A stretch of DNA of 64,000 nt from NCBI GenBank assembly GCA_045837725.1, contig JBEWZL010000078.1, positions 1 through 64,000 of the forward strand, written 5' to 3'. The translations under genes were made by a program, and so were the position numbers. The stretch's first letter is position 1, and each line of letters starts with the position of its first letter. The notes below the pieces were generated by a model. The model saw only the letters and a list, made by a program, of their open reading frames with translations. It was not told the origin of the DNA and did not search any database. This stretch comes from Vermamoeba vermiformis (taxonomy: Eukaryota). Below, piece after piece: positions 648 to 59,660 of the stretch.

Positions 648-3600
648 CTACTTGCCGTTTATCTCTACCGCGAACTCCGTGTTGAAATTCGTGGTGATCT
701 GCTGTAAAAGCGAAAGAGCTTTTACACGCGTGTCGAGCTGAGAGATGCGCGTGTTGAAACTACGGTTAAGAGTACTGGAGCGTAGAAAGACAGATCCAGG
801 ACCAAGGAGATCACGTAGTTGATTCTTGAGCGCAGGAAGTGGGTAAGTAGGCAATTCTTCAAAGCGGCGGCGCAGATCAATAAGAGTCTCTGCTAACACT
901 TGTAGAATTGACTTTGAGCGATCCGTTCGTCGAGATGTAGATGGAGCGGATGCTGGAACTGAAGGAGCGGGAATTGAAGGGATAGGCGTGAGGTCATGCG
1001 AGAGGTCTTGAGATGACGATTCAACAGGCTCAGGACTAGGACTTGGAGCGGGTTGTTCCAATTCTGTTGAATTTTCTTCGGGAATTTCATCGGAATATTC
1101 GTGACGTGAAACAAAGGGCTTGATTTGATTGACGTTGACAGTTCGCTTCTTGCGCGAGTTGAGCTCGCGAATGACGTAGCTAAGATCACTGTTTTTACGA
1201 ATTATAATAAACGGACCTTTCCACTTTGGTGCGAACTTGTGTCTTCGTTTTTGAACTTGCATCCAGACCATATCACCAACTCCGTAGCTAAAGTCTCTAC
1301 GTTGTAAGTTGTAATTATGGGCCATGGATTCTTGGGAGTCCTTGATATGTCGTCGAACAATGTCGTACGCGGTCAGAAATTGCTTCGAGATCTCATGAGC
1401 ATAAGAGTTTGGGTCAATGTTGAGATCGTTGGGTTGTAGAATTCCATTCAATAGCGGGGATCGCGCAATTCTTCCGAAGAGGATTTCAAAAGGTGACGCG
1501 TGAGTTGACGTTTGACGTGTAATTCGGTAAGCAAAACAAGCAAACGGAATAAAAGAATTCCAAGTCGTTGCTTTTTCGTTGGTGAAGTGAGAGAGCGTAT
1601 TGACCAGTGTCTTGTTGAATCTCTCTACTTGTCCGTCGGTCTGAGGTCGATAAGGTGCAGTGAAGATCTTGACGGATCCAACGATGTCACAGATCGCGGA
1701 GAGAAGTTCGTTGAGAAACTCTTTTCCGTTGTCTGAGAGAATCTGTCGAGGTGAACCAAAACGGCAGATTATTTCGCTTACTAAGACGTCAGCGACTTCT
1801 TTTGCAGTTTTCGTGCGGATCGGAAAGGCTTCTACCCACTTCGAGAACAGGTCTTGTACGACGAGAATATACTGGTATCCTTCGCGGGTCTTAGGAAGAG
1901 GACCTACGAGATCAACACCAATAATGTCGAACGGTTCGTGAGACTGAAGCGGCTGTAGATCTCCGATTTGTTTGTCGAGTGAGAGCTTTCGCGCATTGCA
2001 AGATTCACACGTCTGGACGTACTGACGTATGTCATCTGCCATGCTGGGCCAATAGAAGTCTTGTCGTACTCGATAGAACATCTTGTTAAAGCCGTAGTGA
2101 CCACCTAGTAGACCATCGTGCGAGTGCTCAAGTACGAGCTTGCGTAGCGGCTCAGGGACTACTAGCTGTCGAATTGTCGATTGGGTCACGGGGTTGTCGA
2201 AGAGGCGATACAAGATATCGTCGTCAACTAGCCATTCACGCTTATACATAAGCGTATAGAATCGTTGAAGATGGTCTCTCGGAAAGGTCTTATGTACGAT
2301 GAAGTCCTTGATATAGTTGATCGAAGGGTCTTCATCTTGAGCCTTTATGAGTTGTTCACATGTCCAAGGCCATGGTGTAGTCGTTGTAGACGCGAGTGCT
2401 GCAACTGGATAACGCGAGAGAGCGTCAGCGTTGGTGTGCTTAGATCCAGCTCGAAACACGACGTCATAATCATAGTCCATCAGCGCGGCTTGCCAGCGGG
2501 CTAAACGACCAGTCGGCTGTCTATTCGTGTGCAAATAAACAAGCGCTTGATGATCAGTGACCACAGTGAACTTTCGACCGAAAAGGTACGGGCGATAGTG
2601 CTCTATGGCTTTGACCATTGCCAATGCCTCTAACTCGGTGATTGAGTAGTTGCGTTCAGCGGGAGAGAGGGACCTTGAATAATAGCTAATAACTCGTTCG
2701 GGAGGACCGGAGATGTTGGCTTGCAATAGTACAGCGCCTATTCCTGTACCAGAAGCATCGGTTGCGAGAATGAAGGGTTGGTTGTAGTCAGGTAAACCAA
2801 GAACGGGTTTAGACGTGAGGATATGCTTGATTGTGTCGAACGCTGACTGAGTTGTAGCATTCCACGTCCAAGACGTGTTTGTCTTGAGTAGATCCGTTAA
2901 CGGTTTTTGAATTTTTGCAATATTCCGCAAGAAGGGACGGTAGAAGTTGACCAAGCCAAGGAAGACTCGTATGTCGTCGGGCTTCGTTGGAGTGGGAAAA
3001 TCCATGACGGCCTTTACTTTCTCGTGCGTGATCGTGACGCCATCGGAGGAGACCTGATGACCCAAAAATGTAATGGATTTTCGCGCGAATTGACACTTTG
3101 TGGGTTTAAGGTATATTCCTGCCGACTTGATACGCTCGAGGACAGTTCGTAAATTCTTCAAATGCTCTTCCCAGGTACGGGAGAAAACGATGATATCGTC
3201 GAGATAACAAAGGCAGATCTCGTACTTAAGTCCTGACAAGATCATGTCCATTGCGCGTTGGAATGTCATCGGAGCATTTACGAGGCCAAAGGGCATCACC
3301 TTGAATTGATAAAGACCGCGGTGTGTGACGAAGGCAGTCTTTTCTACGTCGTCTGGGTGCATCATGATTTGCCAGTATCCAGAGACGCAGTCCATGGTCG
3401 AAAACCAGACCATGCCAGAGAGAGAATCGAGAGTATGGTCCAAACGAGGCAACGGGTACATGTCGTGCACTGTTGTCTTGTTGAGACGCCAATAGTCAAT
3501 GCAAAAACGGATAGAGCTGTCTTTCTTTCGCACTAAGACCACGGGTGAGGACCAAGGTGAAGCTGAGGGTTCAATGACGCCTGACGCAAGCATCTCGTCA

Positions 3601-4691
3601 ATAGCGTCACTCTCGATCTTGCGCTCAGTAGGACCAAAAACATAAGGCTGAGACTGGACACGATGAGCGTGAGGTTCGGTGATGATGCGATGTTTGACGT
3701 TAGTTTGAATTACGTCAGTCGAATGGATCTTGTTCAAAAATCTATCGCGATAATCCAGAAGGACCTTCTTGATCTGGATCAATTGCTCGGGACTGAGACT
3801 ATTGTCGAAGGAGAATTGAGAGAGAAATTGCTCCTCGGTGTCGGGTGACGGATTGACAGGTGTCAATGTTGAAATGAGATTCACGGAATTATAGAGTACG
3901 GGATTGAGCTCGCCAATAACGGTTCCTTTCTTGAGAGTGATAGGAAACATCGTGCTATTGACCAAATTCAGCATAATAAGACCATCAGAAGAGACACTGT
4001 CGATAGTACACGCGCTTCGTATCGAAGTTTCGTGTTGTAGATCAGGTGATGGGACCATAATAGCTACAGTATCGGGTCGTAGCGAGACAGCGATGGGATT
4101 GATATAGGCCGTGAATGGTTTAAACTCCAAGTCACGATCTAACACAACTCGTTGTCGGTTGAAGAAAATGTCTCTCTTGTCATATGTGATTCGGACCTTG
4201 CCGTGACTGGTCTTCACATAACTGCCGCCGAGGCTAACATTAGCATTAACCTTGCCCATGAGATCATTCCCGATGAGAAGATCAACTGCGGAGTTATGTA
4301 CAATGCCGAAAGGCCAAGTAATGCGAACACCAGCGAAACAGACCTCGATGTACGCGACGGTCTTGATGTTCAGTGGGAAGCGATTTAATCCAGAGAGTGA
4401 ATCACCATGAAATGAAGTAACGCGGACTTTGCCTAATTTGTCGAGGAAGTCGCGAGATACACAGGACCGACCAGCGCCAGTGTCGAACATGGCCATGACC
4501 TCATGTGAGTTAGCGGTCACGGGACCAAAAACAGGCGTTTTAGAGTCGTCCTGACCTTCATTCGGGTCTGGAGTAACAGTGGTTGGTGGGTTTGGAGCGG
4601 GAGGTAGAACAACCACATTGTCCACGTGTGGTTGAGCGTTAACTGACTCTGAGGGCTTAGGTCGCGGAGGCGAGTCAACTCGGACCTGCAT
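648..4691 (-). CDS. pol: Pol polyprotein (aspartic protease, RT, RNase H, integrase)
   Basis: FDTGA protease motif; YLDD RT motif; TDAS RNase H; H..GH..CESC zinc finger; DLVGP/SDNG/GQVER DDE triad; WKGPF motif. Confidence 0.97.
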   Translation of the reverse strand: MQVRVDSPPRPKPSESVNAQPHVDNVVVLPPAPNPPTTVTPDPNEGQDDSKTPVFGPVTANSHEVMAMFDTGAGRSCVSRDFLDKLGKVRVTSFHGDSLSGLNRFPLNIKTVAYIEVCFAGVRITWPFGIVHNSAVDLLIGNDLMGKVNANVSLGGSYVKTSHGKVRITYDKRDIFFNRQRVVLDRDLEFKPFTAYINPIAVSLRPDTVAIMVPSPDLQHETSIRSACTIDSVSSDGLIMLNLVNSTMFPITLKKGTVIGELNPVLYNSVNLISTLTPVNPSPDTEEQFLSQFSFDNSLSPEQLIQIKKVLLDYRDRFLNKIHSTDVIQTNVKHRIITEPHAHRVQSQPYVFGPTERKIESDAIDEMLASGVIEPSASPWSSPVVLVRKKDSSIRFCIDYWRLNKTTVHDMYPLPRLDHTLDSLSGMVWFSTMDCVSGYWQIMMHPDDVEKTAFVTHRGLYQFKVMPFGLVNAPMTFQRAMDMILSGLKYEICLCYLDDIIVFSRTWEEHLKNLRTVLERIKSAGIYLKPTKCQFARKSITFLGHQVSSDGVTITHEKVKAVMDFPTPTKPDDIRVFLGLVNFYRPFLRNIAKIQKPLTDLLKTNTSWTWNATTQSAFDTIKHILTSKPVLGLPDYNQPFILATDASGTGIGAVLLQANISGPPERVISYYSRSLSPAERNYSITELEALAMVKAIEHYRPYLFGRKFTVVTDHQALVYLHTNRQPTGRLARWQAALMDYDYDVVFRAGSKHTNADALSRYPVAALASTTTTPWPWTCEQLIKAQDEDPSINYIKDFIVHKTFPRDHLQRFYTLMYKREWLVDDDILYRLFDNPVTQSTIRQLVVPEPLRKLVLEHSHDGLLGGHYGFNKMFYRVRQDFYWPSMADDIRQYVQTCESCNARKLSLDKQIGDLQPLQSHEPFDIIGVDLVGPLPKTREGYQYILVVQDLFSKWVEAFPIRTKTAKEVADVLVSEIICRFGSPRQILSDNGKEFLNELLSAICDIVGSVKIFTAPYRPQTDGQVERFNKTLVNTLSHFTNEKATTWNSFIPFACFAYRITRQTSTHASPFEILFGRIARSPLLNGILQPNDLNIDPNSYAHEISKQFLTAYDIVRRHIKDSQESMAHNYNLQRRDFSYGVGDMVWMQVQKRRHKFAPKWKGPFIIIRKNSDLSYVIRELNSRKKRTVNVNQIKPFVSRHEYSDEIPEENSTELEQPAPSPSPEPVESSSQDLSHDLTPIPSIPAPSVPASAPSTSRRTDRSKSILQVLAETLIDLRRRFEELPTYPLPALKNQLRDLLGPGSVFLRSSTLNRSFNTRISQLDTRVKALSLLQQITTNFNTEFAVEINGK

Positions 4692-6152
4692 TATTTTTTT
4701 GCATGGTATTTATGAGTGGCCTCTTGCGCTTGACCTTGCCTCTTGCCAGAGAGCTGTTGCTTTTGGGCCTTGCATTCGCTGTCGTTGTGCGAACTGACTT
4801 TGTGGAACGTGCACCATTTCGCGGGAGCGGAGCCCTGCGAGACTCGGGCCAAATTGTTCATGTTAGCTTCGAGTGATGCAAGGCGATCAAGCACCTCATT
4901 AAAGCGATTGTAGCGTTGCTCAAAGAGTGCGTTGATTGAAGAAACTGGGAGTGACGGTTCAGACACTTCAGCTGCAATTGTCACGGGAGCTGGTGCTGGA
5001 CGACGAGTCTTGTCATAATCCATCAGGGTAATCAAAGCTTTCTCAAAGTCTTTGATATCCTTGCGTCGCAGTTCTTCGTTGTACTCGTCACGGAGACTGA
5101 AGCGTAAGAGCAAGAATCGGTCTGATGCGTTGAGAGTACGGAAATTTGCCATCTGACGGTTGAGATATTGACGGAAATTCTCTTCAGGGAGCTGAGGGTG
5201 ACGAATGATGTTCTGATGTTGAGCAAGAACATCTGTCTGAGTTTTCCCGTAGAGTGATGTCAGACGATCGACAAGTTTCTCTTGAGTGTCGGTCTCTTTA
5301 GGCGGGAACAAGCCTATAAAGTCCGCTGCTGGAGGCCTGAGGCGATTCTTCATCACGTAATAGATGTAGTCCGTGCCCCAATTTGCGGCTTGAGCTGCGC
5401 TGTAGATCTGGTCGAACCACGCTTCGAGAGTGATAGAGCCATCACCCTTAAAGTCATCTACGGAGCTTGGGAGACTGAGTCGAATCATTGGCTTCGAAGC
5501 GTCGTGCTCGTGGCTTTGGAAATATCGTTGAAAATTCGAACCCCCGTCGGGGTTATTTCCGACATCGTCATCGCCGGAGGAAGGATCACCATCTCCTGGC
5601 TGATCACCACGTTTAGGAGGGCTTGGCGCCCTGCGCGTTCTAAAGCGTCTACCACCGGTCTTGTTGCCCCCCGGAGCCTGACCACCAGCTGCAGACTGGC
5701 TGCCTGACTCGGGTTGCTTACCGGGTGGAGGTACATCGCCAGACTTCTCCTTGGGCTGTTCCGGAGTTGTAGTCTGTTCCTTCTTCTCAGAAGAGTCAGA
5801 AGGCTGCTTCTGTTCAGAAGAACTCGCGGCTTGTGAAGCGTCGCCGGTCTCGTCGAAGAGGAGCGAGAGTTTTGGCCTCTTCTCCGTTTTCTCCTTCTCA
5901 GACTTGGGAGAATTGTTGTTATTAGGTCCAAGCACAGGCGCGGGGCTTGGTGCTGGACTGGAAGGGACAGAATCACTCGGCATGGGTACATCCGGTGATT
6001 CGCTGACTAGATCTCGGTCAGAAATTTCCACGACAACAAATATAACGGAGGAACTCACTTGTAGTCACGTCAAAAGTAGACTCTCTTCTAGGGTCTAGCC
6101 CATTCTTTTTACGCGCTGACTCGTTGACAGATTTGCCGAATTCTTCAGCCAT
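4691..6152 (-). CDS. gag: Gag, predicted join(6152-6059, 6006-4691), 469 aa
   Basis: Capsid-like segment FKGDGSITLEAWF; CX2HX4HX4C knuckle WCTFHKVSSHNDSEC; upstream ATG exon joins in frame through a 52-nt GTGAGT..CTGAC..TAG intron. Confidence 0.85.
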
Positions 6153-25467: not shown

Positions 25468-26460
25468 ATGACTACTAAATCATTAGGTTCGTGATTACAA
25501 TCGGTCTGTTTAAATGTTAATGCTACATCCGACTGATACGTTTCAGCCAAATTAGTTGCTGTAGTGGCAGGAGGCAGTAAAGGCATCGGTCGTGGCATAG
25601 CGCTAGAACTAGGCCAGGCTGGTGCTACAGTCTACGTCACTGGTCGCAGTGTGCTCGGCAAACTCAGTTCAGATCAGACCAAGGGCACGATCGACGAGAC
25701 CGCAGCGGATGTGACGCGACTTGGTGGCCACGGCATTCCAGTGCAATGTGATCACACGCAAGAAGAGCAAGTCGCTAAGTTGTTCGAGCGCGTCAAACAA
25801 GAGCAACAAGGTCGGTTAGATCTGCTTGTCAATGTGGTCTGGGGAGGCTACGAGAACTACAAGCCAGACCTCTTTCAAGCACCGTTCTGGCAGACCCCGG
25901 CCTCGATGTTCGACAGCATGTTTCGCTCGGGTCTGTTCGCGCAGTTCCTCACCAGCAAGCACGCAGCACCGCTCATGACACCTGCGCGCAAAGGACTCAT
26001 CGTGCACGTCTCGTTCGGAGATTATGAAGGCAAAGAAGTGCAGTACTTTGACCCGAATAAGGACGCTGCTGATGACAAGTATCAATCGCCGTATGCAGTG
26101 CCTGGTGGGAAATATGTTGGCATGGCAATGTATGATGTCGCGAAGCTGTCGTTGGATCGATTGGCGATTGCACAAGCGTATGATTTGAAAGAATACGGTG
26201 TCGCTTCATTGTGCTTGCATCCAGGATTCGTGTTCACTGAACGCGTGGCCAAGTTCCATGAAGAAGGTCTGCCAGATCCATCGCAATTTGCCGAATCTCC
26301 CCACTACATAGGCCGAGCAGTAGTAGCTATGGCGTCTGACGAGAATATCATGCAAAAGAGCGGCAAGGCGTTTGCGGTGGGAAACTTGGCCAAGGAATAC
26401 AAGTTCACTGACATTGATGGCAAGTATTGGCCTCCGTTCCGTATGCCCGAGAAACATTAA
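25468..26460 (+). CDS. Short-chain dehydrogenase/reductase, DHRS1-like
   Basis: GGSKGIGRGIA, ATVYVTGR, YDVAK (YxxxK), AESPHYIGRAV. Confidence 0.9.
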
Positions 26461-58200: not shown

Positions 58201-58299
58201 CAGCCTGCAGACTTGAAGAAGCGTATTGAGAGCTTGATTGAACGCGACTACCTCGAGCGAACACCAGACGACGCCAATGTGTACAACTATTTAGCTTAG
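55252..58299 (+). CDS. CUL4: Cullin-4
   Basis: [60 protein letters not shown]. Confidence 0.95.
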
Positions 58300-58438
58300 T
58301 GTCCTGGTGATGTAAAAATTTGTTTTTTAGTGCCCAAGTCATTTTGCGAATCTTAGCAGAACAGCGACAGCAATCCCACAATAGTTTTCCTCCATATTAC
58401 ACGTGCAATATTCAATCCAAGGGCTCGACGACCACCGC

Positions 58439-58588
58439 GCAGGGATGCACCGGCACCGTACTTCCTCGATTTGCTTATAGCTAAGTTGGTATAGCGAAAC
58501 GCTGATAACGTTTAGGTCACGAGTTCGACTCTCGTTAAGCATCCTTTGTCTTCTTAGTACGTGCTGCTATCATCCTGCTTTTTTTTTT
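58439..58588 (+). ncRNA. Hairpin-enclosed tRNA-like cassette 1
   Basis: 5' flank GCAGGGATGCACCGGCACCGTAC pairs with 3' flank GTACGTGCTGCTATCATCCTGC; followed by T10. Confidence 0.7.
58471..58543 (+). tRNA. tRNA-Ile(GAU)-like cloverleaf, bacterial/organellar type, non-standard acceptor end
   Basis: TGCTTA/TAAGCA acceptor with 1:72 T-T mismatch and C73; D stem GCTA/TAGC; AAACG-CTGATAA-CGTTT; ACGAG-TTCGACT-CTCGT. Confidence 0.8.
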
Positions 58589-58787
58589 GCACAACATGAG
58601 CCTGGATAATGACAGCACCATCAGCATATTCAGTGACTAAAGCGCTGGAGGCATCGTTGTTGATGATGACAACAGAGAGTCCAGTGTTGCATCTGCGAAA
58701 TTTGACGGAAAGGAGGTTGGCATCCCATAACTCTTCTGTAGTATTATAACAACACGCAAATAAGATTTTGCCGGCCTACCAGTAGTT

Positions 58788-58929
58788 AGGGATGCACCGG
58801 TACTGTACTTCATCGCTTGCTTTTAGTTTAATGGTTAAACGAAATCCTTCCAAGATTTAGTTATGAGTTCGATTCTCGTAAAGCAAAATTACTTTCTTCT
58901 GTACATGCTGCTATCATCCTCTTTTTTTT
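58788..58929 (+). ncRNA. Hairpin-enclosed tRNA-like cassette 2
   Basis: 5' flank AGGGATGCACCGGTACTGTAC pairs with 3' flank GTACATGCTGCTATCATCCT; followed by T8. Confidence 0.7.
58817..58887 (+). tRNA. tRNA-Gly(UCC)-like cloverleaf, non-standard acceptor end
   Basis: TTGCTTT/AAAGCAA acceptor; D stem GTTT/AAAC; AAATC-CTTCCAA-GATTT; 4-nt variable loop; ATGAG-TTCGATT-CTCGT. Confidence 0.8.
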
Positions 58930-59035
58930 GCTCGGCTGGCGAGCGATGGAGGTCCGTTCCCGCTTGCAAAAATTTAAAAACTATTTGCCTGCAAAAAAAG
59001 TCATTTAAAACAAATTCTCTGTCAGAGTAACACAT

Positions 59036-59660
59036 ATGAAAAGAGCTAACAGCGATCGTGTTAGTGTTGCTTCTGTTCAACAGCGCTCTGAAGCAATAGA
59101 GCTTTGTACCGCTTCAAGCGAGGTAGAACCATCACCGGCGCCTCTGACCCTCAAAGAAAAAGTCCTGACGAGCTTTATCACCGCTGGGATTAACGAGCGA
59201 GTGGCAGACGACTTTTTGTCGCAATGTGAAGCAGCTTTGCCGATGGATTCTGACAAGAATTGGATATTGCGATTCATTCGAGAACAACACGAGCTAATTA
59301 GTGAAACAAAGCCAGACCTCTTGACCGACACTGCAGGATACTTTGAAGCACTTGGATTTGATCACACACCCTCGGTCGATCCCGAGATTTGGAAATATGA
59401 AACTCTCATCAATGTTGCCATACTTCTCATTCACGATTCTCTGGCGGTCATCACTTGCCAGCTAGGTGACAACGTGCCTCTTGACACATGGACTCTCGTG
59501 CCAGCCAATTCAGTGTCCGCCACGAATGGTTCGAAAAAAGTGGGTGTGGGTTGAGCGTTAGAGCTCAGGTGAGCAGAAGCACTTGGACTGATAGCGCCTT
59601 GGTGGCCGTGTATCAAGACTGCACTACACTAGTAGCTTTCTACTTGGGTTTAATAAATAA
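59036..59660 (+). CDS. Hypothetical protein
   Basis: 172-codon ATG-initiated ORF with protein-like composition; possible last intron; no motif recognised. Confidence 0.4.

Follow-up and report, generated by a model that had tools for sequence, protein, structure and literature searches.

Two bacterial- or organelle-style tRNAs within one conserved paired helix: candidate genes for helix-clamped tRNA precursors in a eukaryotic intergenic region

Y RNAs and vault RNAs are Pol III panhandles whose ends pair in a bulged helix and which finish in an oligo-U tail, and bacterial Y RNAs such as YrlA also carry a tRNA-like module. Vault RNA genes typically show a hybrid promoter layout, in which an upstream element is combined with internal A/B elements. 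Stem-loop tags have been engineered that import tRNA precursors into mitochondria, and in some mitochondrial genomes palindromic elements flank the genes, a layout like that of A/T-rich cores between G+C-richer arms. The resupply of organelles that lose tRNA genes and the choice of RNAs for import are old open questions. In Selaginella kraussiana, nuclear "plastid-like" and "bacterial-like" tRNA genes have been duplicated, point mutations have given them other anticodons, and their tRNAs are expressed and imported into the organelle (PMC11573648); according to the passages of that report drawn on here, these were the first expressed nuclear organelle-type tRNA genes to be shown. In alloacceptor anticodon shifts, or tRNA remoulding, one tRNA body is kept and its identity is changed through the anticodon (PMC3923123, PMC4783518). 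Class I RNAs are about 42-65 nt long, carry an 11-nt motif by the 5' stem and, in the parts of the sources cited, have no internal tRNA and are restricted to Dictyostelia (PMC7919456, PMC3188802). The upstream element DUSE precedes ncRNA start sites by about 60-63 nt, in Pol II and Pol III genes alike (PMC3188802, PMC7919456), and the same parts describe it only in Dictyostelia. In the MALAT1 mascRNA region, the sequences before and after the mature RNA pair with each other and affect end maturation (PMC8457004).

The window analysed here is a stretch of 64,000 bases. ARAGORN detected two tRNA genes in the whole of it, Ile(gat) at 58471-58544 and Gly(tcc) at 58817-58887, and the same two were the only Rfam matches in the window at the gathering threshold, scoring 63.2 bits (Ile-GAU) and 62.0 bits (Gly-UCC) where the RF00005 gathering score is 29 bits. 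They lie in intergenic DNA of eukaryotic character that follows a cullin-4 gene with introns; a cullin-4 relative, P0121, was found at 95% identity. Each tRNA, complete and of bacterial or organelle style, lies between the two strands of a common conserved helix, forming unit A (58441-58588) and unit B (58788-58929), spaced 347 bp apart. A sequence-only reading of this DNA had described two paralogous units with Ile-GAU and Gly-UCC cloverleaves, and ARAGORN and Rfam agree with it. The parts of the units are as follows.

58441..58461, + strand, 5' carrier strand of unit A (19/21 identical to unit B; pairs with 58557-58576)
58462..58470, + strand, 5' linker of unit A, an unpaired leader (6/9 identical to unit B)
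58471..58543, + strand, tRNA-Ile core of unit A (anticodon GAT at 58504-58506; ARAGORN and RF00005)
58544..58556, + strand, 3' linker of unit A, a pyrimidine-rich trailer (5/13 identical to unit B)
58557..58576, + strand, 3' carrier strand of unit A (19/20 identical to unit B; pairs with 58441-58461)
58788..58808, + strand, 5' carrier strand of unit B (MFE fold, duplex energy, RNAalifold, identity)
58809..58816, + strand, 5' linker of unit B (comparison with unit A)
58817..58887, + strand, tRNA-Gly core of unit B (anticodon TCC at 58849-58851; ARAGORN and Rfam)
58888..58900, + strand, 3' linker of unit B (comparison with unit A)
58901..58920, + strand, 3' carrier strand of unit B (duplex energy, RNAalifold, identity)

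The flanks of each unit pair as a 16-bp bipartite helix, followed by T10 in unit A or T8 in unit B. From the outside inwards, the helix is made up of 6 bp (GGGATG/CATCCT), a 3x4 internal loop, and 10 bp with one bulged pyrimidine. This is the pairing that the sequence-only reading had drawn, and duplex energies, MFE folds and RNAalifold bear it out. The duplex energies are -22.7 and -17.7 kcal/mol, values that were equalled in 6 of 2000 shuffles for each unit, and the carrier helix is present in the single-sequence MFE folds of both units as well as in the RNAalifold consensus. Across the window, the 5' motif has two exact sites and one chance-level site with 2 mismatches (3 matches against 1.89 expected), and the 3' motif has two exact sites against 0.42 expected, a count of two being reached in 6 of 100 shuffles. 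Bulge-helix-bulge geometry (a 4-bp helix with a 3-nt bulge at each end, one on either strand) was not found in the carrier, which has instead the 3x4 internal loop and a single 1-nt bulge. The acceptor ends of the tRNAs are open and are joined to the carrier helix via unpaired, fast-evolving linkers. Our tentative reading, held at somewhat less than even confidence, is that the units are genes of Pol III type, each encoding an organelle-type tRNA as a helix-clamped precursor.

The anatomy of the units, their conservation pattern and their compensated pairs can be read directly from a comparison of the two copies. Identity between units A and B is 19/21 and 19/20 in the carrier, against 51/73 in the tRNA cores and 6/9 and 5/13 in the linkers. 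The homology ends at the helix base and the T-run, ungapped identity outside the units being 22/60 upstream and 17/60 downstream. The carrier thus appears to be under stronger constraint than the tRNA core, which we count in favour of the precursor reading. The same end helix, conserved in sequence beyond pairing, with its constant 3x4 internal loop, its bulged pyrimidine and the oligo-T directly after it, would also suit a stable tRNA mimic: an unprocessed panhandle RNP RNA of about 140 nt, Y- or vault-like, in which end helix and oligo-U bind protein and the tRNA module recruits or decoys tRNA-binding factors. We judge this unlikely, because open acceptor ends on unpaired, fast-evolving linkers are the layout expected for access by RNase P and RNase Z, and because no Y RNA, vault RNA or other non-tRNA Rfam family scored beyond chance in 58300-59000 at E values up to 10. 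This permissive Rfam list contained tRNA twice, snoR113 (14.5 bits) and Xist_exon1 (12 bits), the last two at chance level.

Because the A/B homology is bounded exactly by the outer ends of an inverted repeat and the T-run, a selfish or structural DNA repeat has also to be weighed. Such a repeat would be a foldback, MITE-like or palindrome-prone element with a tRNA-derived core, with the carrier strands as its terminal inverted repeats, whose likeness would be maintained by recognition by a transposase or by template switching between the arms. We hold this to be rather unlikely. Decaying copies would not be expected to show what the cores show: 22 of their 73 columns differ, and still standard pairs occupy 72 of 72 pair cells, with no pair broken and a covarying tertiary pair (15:48, which is G:C in A but A:U in B). 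Pairing survives each of the 14 substitutions at paired positions: six pairs are compensated, having changed on both sides, and two changed on one side to G-U. When the 3' partners were slid by 1-3 columns as a control, just 31.9-42.0% of the cells paired. Pairing is likewise kept in all three carrier changes, and the C-G to T-A and C-G to T-G differences listed for the carrier in the sequence-only reading are correct. No direct repeat of at least 5 nt, as a target-site duplication would give, abuts either unit, the sole one being TTTTGC, 22 nt from the start of unit B. The outer carrier bases resemble the termini of a plant DNA transposon family, a likeness that was dropped as there is no 8-bp target duplication. 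A retroelement primer role was dropped, since no window site other than the tRNAs themselves is complementary to the 3' end of either tRNA, with or without CCA.

The scores and compensated pairs indicate that the cores are genuine tRNA folds, which also counts in favour of the precursor reading. According to the cmscan alignments, U8, A14, G18-G19, 15:48, U33, a purine at 37, T54-T55-C56 and A58, the positions of the L-shape, are all present in both cores. The anticodon arms of both units are fully canonical, with 7-nt loops, U33 and A37, two compensated pairs between units and different sense anticodons; a scaffold of the tRNA-mimic kind needs none of these. Unit A has a U1-U72 mismatch, its sole non-standard pair in the Rfam alignment, and discriminator C, and unit B has seven standard acceptor-stem pairs from U1-A72 and discriminator A. 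The acceptor stem (U1, U2, G3...) is common to both tRNAs, and together with the mismatch and the C discriminator of unit A we take it to be a poor fit to the usual Ile and Gly identity sets; a common acceptor stem and odd identity elements would matter less to a mimic.

The cores have G+C contents of 0.42 and 0.31, against 0.67 and 0.50 for the carrier strands, and their positions 7-64 show 75-85% identity to phage and bacterial tRNAs, annotated tRNA-Ile and tRNA-Gly among them. G34 for Ile is not known to be used in the eukaryotic cytosol. On composition, on identity to phage and bacterial tRNAs and on this rule, the cores appear to be organelle- or bacterial-type in character, which we count in favour of precursors of organelle-type tRNAs. 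A/T-rich bacterial-type cores between G+C-richer hairpin arms could equally be dead organelle DNA (NUMT or NUPT), in which organelle tRNA genes and organelle hairpin repeats have been copied together. We regard this as highly improbable, as the 200-bp spacer and the outer flanks hold no organelle-like coding and have the composition of the nuclear window, and as both copies have kept perfect folds, oligo-T directly past the helix and an upstream 8-mer.

For the reading as Pol III-type precursor genes, the sequences around the units are relevant, and the following features were noted.

58374..58381, + strand, promoter-like 8-mer TCCCACAA, 67-60 nt upstream of the unit A helix start (DUSE 7/8)
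58395-58401, + strand, second A/T-rich stretch of unit A, TATTACA, 46 nt upstream of the helix start (putative element)
58407..58416, + strand, A/T-rich stretch of unit A, about 30 nt upstream of the helix start (possibly TATA-like)
58579..58588, + strand, T10 run of unit A, 2 bases past the helix (Pol III terminator-like)
58723..58730, + strand, promoter-like 8-mer TCCCATAA, 65-58 nt upstream of the unit B helix start (DUSE 8/8)
58742-58749, + strand, second A/T-rich stretch of unit B, TATTATAA, 46 nt upstream as in unit A (putative element)
58758..58764, + strand, A/T-rich stretch of unit B, about 30 nt upstream of the helix start (putative element)
58922..58929, + strand, T8 run of unit B, 1 base past the helix (Pol III terminator-like)

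The T-runs are those already marked as oligo-T ends in the sequence-only reading. The DUSE counts refer to the motif [AT]CCCA[AT]AA as printed in PMC3188802, a Dictyostelium element that may not be this organism's, and distances are counted to the helix start, the presumed RNA start. Both strands of the 64 kb (128,000 strand positions) contain 14 matches to the 8-mer, and the unit A 8-mer falls in the longest conserved upstream block between the units. Overall upstream similarity between A and B is not significant, with 37-38/100 at the best ungapped offsets, and strong upstream block conservation was dropped as a general claim for this reason. The distance from helix start to the A-box region is about 38 nt, and usual tRNA genes have a shorter one. 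Given the T8 and T10 runs, the A/B-box-like arms and the 8-mer about 60 nt upstream, Pol III transcription of the units is plausible. T-runs and an upstream 8-mer at fixed distances speak against a mere DNA repeat, and the promoter-like 8-mer combined with internal A/B-like arms is a point for the tRNA mimic, this hybrid layout being typical of vault RNA genes.

Three RNA runs, which are ordinary cDNA libraries tied to the window only by species label, yielded no read of at least 95% likeness on unit A, the spacer or unit B itself; the neighbouring cullin-4 3' end also had a depth of 0 in them. They did yield 203, 154 and 31 reads, respectively, all confined to 58763-58924, that differ from unit B at fixed sites: in run X21, 22/22 reads at 58803, 41/41 at 58836 and 110/110 at 58864, and 33/33 at each of the anticodon sites 58850 and 58851, where TCC is changed to TTT. 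A third family member exists and is transcribed, about 95% like unit B, with anticodon UUU and both carrier strands. It differs from unit B at about 7 of 130 positions, the two bearing Lys and Gly anticodons. The reads run on into flanking sequence that the window does not match (22 nt of it find no site there at up to 3 mismatches), passing both helix ends by 30-50 nt or more and crossing a T6 stretch, so that transcription of at least this copy does not simply begin at the helix and stop at the first run of T. A loose end at 58854 had hinted at a fourth member; this was rejected, because the loose end reads as the third member's own anticodon loop in reverse complement and so comes from strand-switch chimeras, in agreement with the joints between opposite strands.

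The flanks of the third member form a perfect inverted repeat that extends the carrier repeat by at least 30 nt. Perfectly complementary lengthening of this kind is expected from template-switching arm expansion (PMC13100816), and the existence of a 95%-similar member with another anticodon is also in line with a DNA repeat. Palindromic flanks imply palindrome dynamics at the DNA level, which could give "compensated" carrier changes without selection on the RNA, and the near-identity of unit B and the third member despite Gly and Lys anticodons means that the anticodon could be free of selection. In the DNA run, three of the four gaps between contig pieces coincide with unit borders, a weak sign of words common to other copies. 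However, only two copies are seen as DNA in the 64 kb, with no degenerate ones found in the window by covariance model or motif scans, and no DNA-run contig over the units is far deeper than its neighbours (407 against 283-384). In DNA depth the unit B contig resembles its neighbours, which also argues against dead organelle DNA; on the organelle reading the transcribed third member would be the organelle original, and it is indeed well represented in RNA-seq where nuclear neighbours are not.

The D and anticodon arms alone set the tRNAs of units A and B apart, the acceptor stem and T arm being near-constant (26/31). The members therefore have the look of paralogues whose anticodons were changed by remoulding, rather than of unrelated tRNAs that were captured. 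The earlier proposal of a constant carrier stem with a variable tRNA module is strengthened by the carrier conservation, the compensated cloverleaf and the third anticodon, but the module that varies is narrower than proposed, excluding the acceptor stem and T arm.

We infer the polymerase, start site, processing, charging and compartment of the family RNAs along the following lines. The units would belong to a small-RNA gene family that is itself small and lineage-specific and resides in the nuclear genome of a eukaryote, and a Pol III transcript of each probably runs from about the first carrier base (AGGGATG...) to the oligo-T past the carrier. In this RNA of about 140 nt, a leader of 30 nt and a trailer of 33 nt would enclose a complete tRNA of bacterial or organellar type that is able to take up the L-shape, and the outer 20 nt of each flank would pair as the sequence-conserved bipartite helix. 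As a precursor, it may use the constant helix and the oligo-U tail as a common handle for protection, sorting or delayed maturation. RNase P and RNase Z could then cut the single-stranded linkers, releasing tRNAs Ile-GAU, Gly-UCC and, from the third member, a Lys-UUU-like species, and these would serve organelle-type decoding and not ordinary cytosolic translation. Duplication would have enlarged the family, the copies keeping a constant acceptor/T-arm body while their D and anticodon arms were remoulded. Several findings count against precursor genes: units A and B have no reads, the third member is read through, identity elements are poor and upstream similarity is weak, and, in addition, the DUSE is known from Dictyostelia alone, the A-box distance is long and two DNA copies are seen. 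A further reading is distinctly improbable in our judgement, namely that the nucleus encodes an organelle-type tRNA set derived from one remoulded ancestor, whose Pol III precursors share a helix-plus-oligo-U sorting tag that bars them from cytosolic translation and directs them to the organelle for maturation.

Of the further copies that the sequence-only reading had advised searching for, the third member came from the RNA reads; the metagenome, viral and prokaryote scans gave none, and neither did Rfam. In the metagenome scan, the 20-nt 5' motif matched seven loci, none of the seven with a tRNA or the 3' motif, and they are therefore taken as chance matches. Viral contigs held no match to the 5' motif and none to the gapped two-motif pattern. 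The sole match to the gapped pattern in prokaryote contigs (L008) was rejected, as it lies in G+C-rich bacterial coding sequence, lacks a tRNA between its motifs and reached 11.2 bits (E 0.75) against covariance model R1, which is chance level. Literature searches on MITE, hairpin and tRNA-like elements, mitochondrial-like tRNAs, transfer of mitochondrial tRNA genes and leader-trailer pairing returned no such architecture, and the carrier motif strings, searched as text, returned unrelated primer matches only. The helix-clamped arrangement could thus not be matched to any described RNA family in Rfam and the literature searched.

A family that places different tRNAs inside one constant helix would offer a testable candidate for a cis-acting handle in sorting, protection or delayed maturation; it would, besides, show anticodon remoulding at work in the building of a tRNA set. 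If the stable tRNA mimic were true, it would represent a new eukaryotic class of panhandle RNP RNA. Under either reading, the unit can be searched for directly in the genome with a covariance model.

Among known systems, the locus resembles Selaginella kraussiana in having organelle-type tRNA genes in a nuclear genome, multiplied and changed in anticodon (PMC11573648), with organelle origin and import being here what we infer. However, the Selaginella genes have ordinary A/B boxes and a CAA upstream motif, and no leader-trailer helix is described in the passages of that account drawn on (PMC11573648). Unit B and the third member, about 95% identical but with anticodons UCC and UUU respectively, are like the remoulding cases, although these, as presented in the parts of the sources cited, are ordinary nuclear or mitochondrial tRNA genes without a common carrier (PMC3923123, PMC4783518). 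The DUSE-like 8-mer about 60 nt upstream of the presumed RNA start, the paired ends, the variable interior, the downstream T-run and the multigene family are shared with dictyostelid Class I/DUSE ncRNAs, as far as the cited portions describe them (PMC7919456, PMC3188802); in contrast, the present units are about 140 nt long with a full tRNA as interior, and they fall outside Class I. The tRNA-like parts of Y, vault and YrlA RNAs are incomplete or closed, whereas in the units the cloverleaf is complete, its acceptor end is open and its anticodon is a sense one. Flanks that pair and sway end maturation are also found in the leader-trailer helices of bacterial and archaeal rRNA and tRNA operons and in MALAT1 mascRNA (PMC8457004, in the part cited), but those precursor helices are not a constant cassette reused on different tRNAs in separate eukaryotic genes. 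If the sorting-tag reading were true, the carrier helix would be the natural counterpart of engineered stem-loop import tags.

The sequence at the locus agrees with the sequence-only reading, which had described two tRNAs, each enclosed in a common flanking helix and followed by a T-run. The two units, whose starts lie 347 bp apart, are as follows:

58441-58588, unit A, holding an Ile tRNA and ending in T10
58788-58929, unit B, holding a Gly tRNA and ending in T8

Across the 64-kb window, ARAGORN predicted exactly two tRNA genes, Ile(gat) at 58471-58544 and Gly(tcc) at 58817-58887, and Rfam at gathering thresholds returned the same two tRNAs only (63.2 and 62.0 bits against a cut-off of 29); each unit is a predicted tRNA by every test applicable here. 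A permissive Rfam scan of 58300-59000 (E up to 10) gave no Y RNA or vault match and added two chance-level rows. In both units, a 21-nt strand of the carrier (the conserved flanks that pair around the tRNA core) leads through an 8-9 nt linker into the tRNA, which is followed by a 13-nt linker, a 20-nt carrier strand, one or two bases, and the T-run. Both tRNAs begin with U1, and CCA is not encoded at the tRNA 3′ end in either unit. The tRNA of unit A has a U1-U72 mismatch and discriminator C, and that of unit B has discriminator A.

The window is eukaryotic nuclear DNA with a G+C content of 39-46%. Directly upstream of the units lies a cullin gene of several exons, two exon ORFs of which matched Pfam Cullin (E 5.7e-76 and 9.3e-39). 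Its best named matches were cullin-4 proteins, with 60-64% identity in both animals and plants; a metagenome or transcriptome protein reached 95%. The cullin-4 stop is located at about 58299, and the next ORF begins at 59036. Elsewhere, the window encodes LRR and RGS proteins, a CDK11/CDKG-like kinase, and a Ty3/gypsy-type gag-pol pair. The latter comprises two long adjoining minus-strand ORFs (648-6058) resembling an intact Ty3/gypsy-type LTR retrotransposon, one gag-like with a zinc-knuckle region (455 aa) and the other with protease, reverse transcriptase, RNase H, and integrase-like stretches (1347 aa). A plus-strand single-exon ORF of 298 aa (25564-26460) shows, by eye, a short-chain dehydrogenase-like N-terminus with a glycine-rich nucleotide-binding stretch. 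Across the inter-unit spacer runs a 73-codon stop-free frame on the minus strand (58554-58775), which may be due to chance. Two spacer stretches, 58604-58618 (GATAATGACAGCA) and 58662-58674 (GATGATGACAACA), show 77-80% complementarity to the 3′ carrier strand of each unit and could be either remnants of carrier copies in inverted orientation or chance matches; 17 such inverted pairs were listed across 751 nt.

Comparison of the two units on their alignment showed marked differences in identity among segments.

Positions identical between unit A and unit B, by segment
5′ carrier strand: 19/21
3′ carrier strand: 19/20
tRNA core: 51/73
5′ linker: 6/9
3′ linker: 5/13
60 nt upstream (ungapped): 22/60
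60 nt after the T-run: 17/60

These values indicate that the carrier rather than the tRNA has stayed constant, and that homology stops at the helix base and the T-run. Within the core, the acceptor and T arm are near-constant (6/7, 15/17, and 5/7 identical), whereas differences are concentrated in the D arm (9/16) and the anticodon arm (10/17). Judged from this alignment, the members therefore resemble paralogues that share one body and have had these two arms remoulded, rather than unrelated captured tRNAs. The sharp homology borders could be accounted for by a foldback or MITE-like repeat, but target-site duplications are absent at both units, the copy number seen is low, and the folds are intact, which makes this alternative quite unlikely.

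The leader and trailer pair over 6 bp at the outer end and, beyond a 3x4 internal loop, over a further 10 bp interrupted by a single bulged pyrimidine. The carrier duplex energies (-22.7 and -17.7 kcal/mol) were matched by 6 of 2000 shuffles in each unit, and the carrier helix is present in the MFE fold of both single sequences. The RNAalifold consensus consists of the carrier plus the cloverleaf, with 36 pairs in total, and standard pairs fill all 72 cells. Six pairs are changed on both sides (one in the carrier, one in the acceptor, two in the D stem, and two in the anticodon stem), two show one-sided changes to G-U, and none is broken. When the 3′ partners were slid by 1-3 columns as a control, only 31.9-42.0% of cells paired, and the observed pairing values were reached by 8 of 500 column shuffles. 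The 15:48 pair, a tertiary contact, covaries as well, from G:C to A:U. Covariation strongly supports the cloverleaf; for the carrier alone, with two sequences and three changes, all pair-keeping, its support is thin. Such a pattern is not expected of decaying pseudogenes or repeat copies, although homogenization of repeat arms at the DNA level could also produce the one compensated pair in the carrier. The sequence-conserved bulged helix with its oligo-U tail would be better explained by a stable tRNA-mimic panhandle RNA; this reading leaves the anticodon arms unexplained, and we consider it unlikely.

The T-runs that immediately follow the helix are consistent with Pol III termination. Upstream likeness of the units is weak overall (37-38 of 100 positions at the best ungapped offsets), and the longest common block is ATCCCA followed by AA, 67 (A) and 65 (B) nt before the helix start. 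[quoted passage not shown] The block matches this motif, described only in dictyostelids and possibly not the host's, at 8/8 positions in unit B and 7/8 in unit A. A widened motif found 14 sites in the window on both strands (10.9 expected), giving a chance of about 0.002 of a match in the 15-nt stretch before a given unit; the window holds no snRNA gene to calibrate it. The 8-mer is a candidate promoter element, a lead and not a result; if it acts as a promoter, the RNA would begin at about the first carrier base and include the whole helix. A/T-rich stretches at about -46 and about -30 in both units were given no weight.

Three RNA-seq runs (X21, X22, and X23) with the same species label as the DNA run, each read to about 13 million records, were compared with 58250-59050. 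They placed 203, 154, and 31 reads, with depth limited to 6 of 30 bins (58763-58924), and no reads, at a likeness of at least 95%, fell on unit A, the spacer, the 3′ end of cullin-4, or the beginning of the following gene. Fixed differences indicate that the reads at unit B do not derive from it.

Differences of placed reads from unit B (X21; X22; X23)
58803, bulged base, C>T: 22/22; 17/17; 6/6
58836, T>C: 41/41; 29/29; 10/10
58841, G>A: 29/29; 27/29; 12/12
58850 and 58851, anticodon TCC to TTT, C>T: 33/33; 24/24; 9/9
58864, restoring the C-G pair of unit A, T>C: 110/110; 97/97; 11/11

Most placed reads (84-88%) extend into sequence unlike the window. Beyond the helix on the 3′ side, 134, 121, and 22 reads run on into a single consensus flank with a T6 run about 11 nt after the helix, and on the 5′ side 16 and 8 reads run into its exact reverse complement. 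The fixed differences and common flanks show that the family has a third member, with about 95% likeness to unit B, a Lys-type anticodon (UUU), and the same carrier. Its RNA includes both carrier strands and, on each side, at least 30 nt of extra perfect inverted repeat, a feature that a foldback or MITE-like repeat would also explain. At 58872 (tRNA position 58), A reads as T in 68/142, 55/115, and 10/19 reads. Reverse transcription misreads methylated A58, and the signal could reflect either this or a roughly 1:1 mixture of two variants. The libraries are ordinary unstranded cDNA, with transposase adaptors in loose read ends, a type that captures small Pol III RNAs poorly. Zero reads were found at 58250-58330 and 59033-59050, against hundreds on the unit B paralogue; the zero depth on cullin-4 suggests low expression or an RNA strain that diverges from the assembly by more than 5%. 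The unit B contig of the DNA run had a depth (407) near that of its neighbours (283-384), which indicates that these exact copies are not high-copy.

Functional small-RNA genes are the best fit to these data, since structure is kept by compensated change, sequence constraint is stronger on the carrier than on its cargo, both a terminator and a promoter-like element lie at fixed distances, the sequence between is randomized, and at least one relative is transcribed. The core G+C (0.42 and 0.31) compares with 0.67 and 0.50 in the carrier strands, and over positions 7-64 the cores share 75-85% identity with tRNAs from phage records, among them annotated tRNA-Ile and tRNA-Gly. Decoding Ile with G34 is a bacterial or organellar trait, and organelles usually read Gly with UCC and Lys with UUU; the anticodons fit an organelle-type set without proving it. 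An origin as a NUMT is very improbable. Tentatively, and at somewhat less than even confidence, we propose that the units yield helix-clamped tRNA precursors. Real tRNAs would be released from them, as favoured by the open acceptor end with unpaired, fast-evolving linkers, by canonical anticodon loops with different sense anticodons, and by the precedent in Selaginella (accessible text of PMC11573648). The released tRNAs may be in organelle-type use, which the A/T-rich bacterial-type cores and the GAU anticodon would favour.

Scans of metagenome, viral, and prokaryote contigs gave only negative or chance results for relatives beyond the window, and a covariance model of carrier plus tRNA found only the two units within it (165 and 151.9 bits, the rest at noise). 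The window lacks a primer-binding-like site complementary to the tRNAs, and the units lack a bulge-helix-bulge motif. Covariance models of Y RNA and vault do not match the units, which also differ from Class I RNAs in length and motif and from SINEs and MITEs in missing their insertion marks. No description of a helix cassette around tRNAs was found in the literature searched, which covered main texts and few subscription papers. The unit pair is a real, non-chance, and unusual feature among tRNA genes and precursors; the nearest described are the nuclear plastid-like tRNA genes of Selaginella, as far as the accessible text of PMC11573648 goes, and anticodon-shift paralogues, both without the shared helix cassette.
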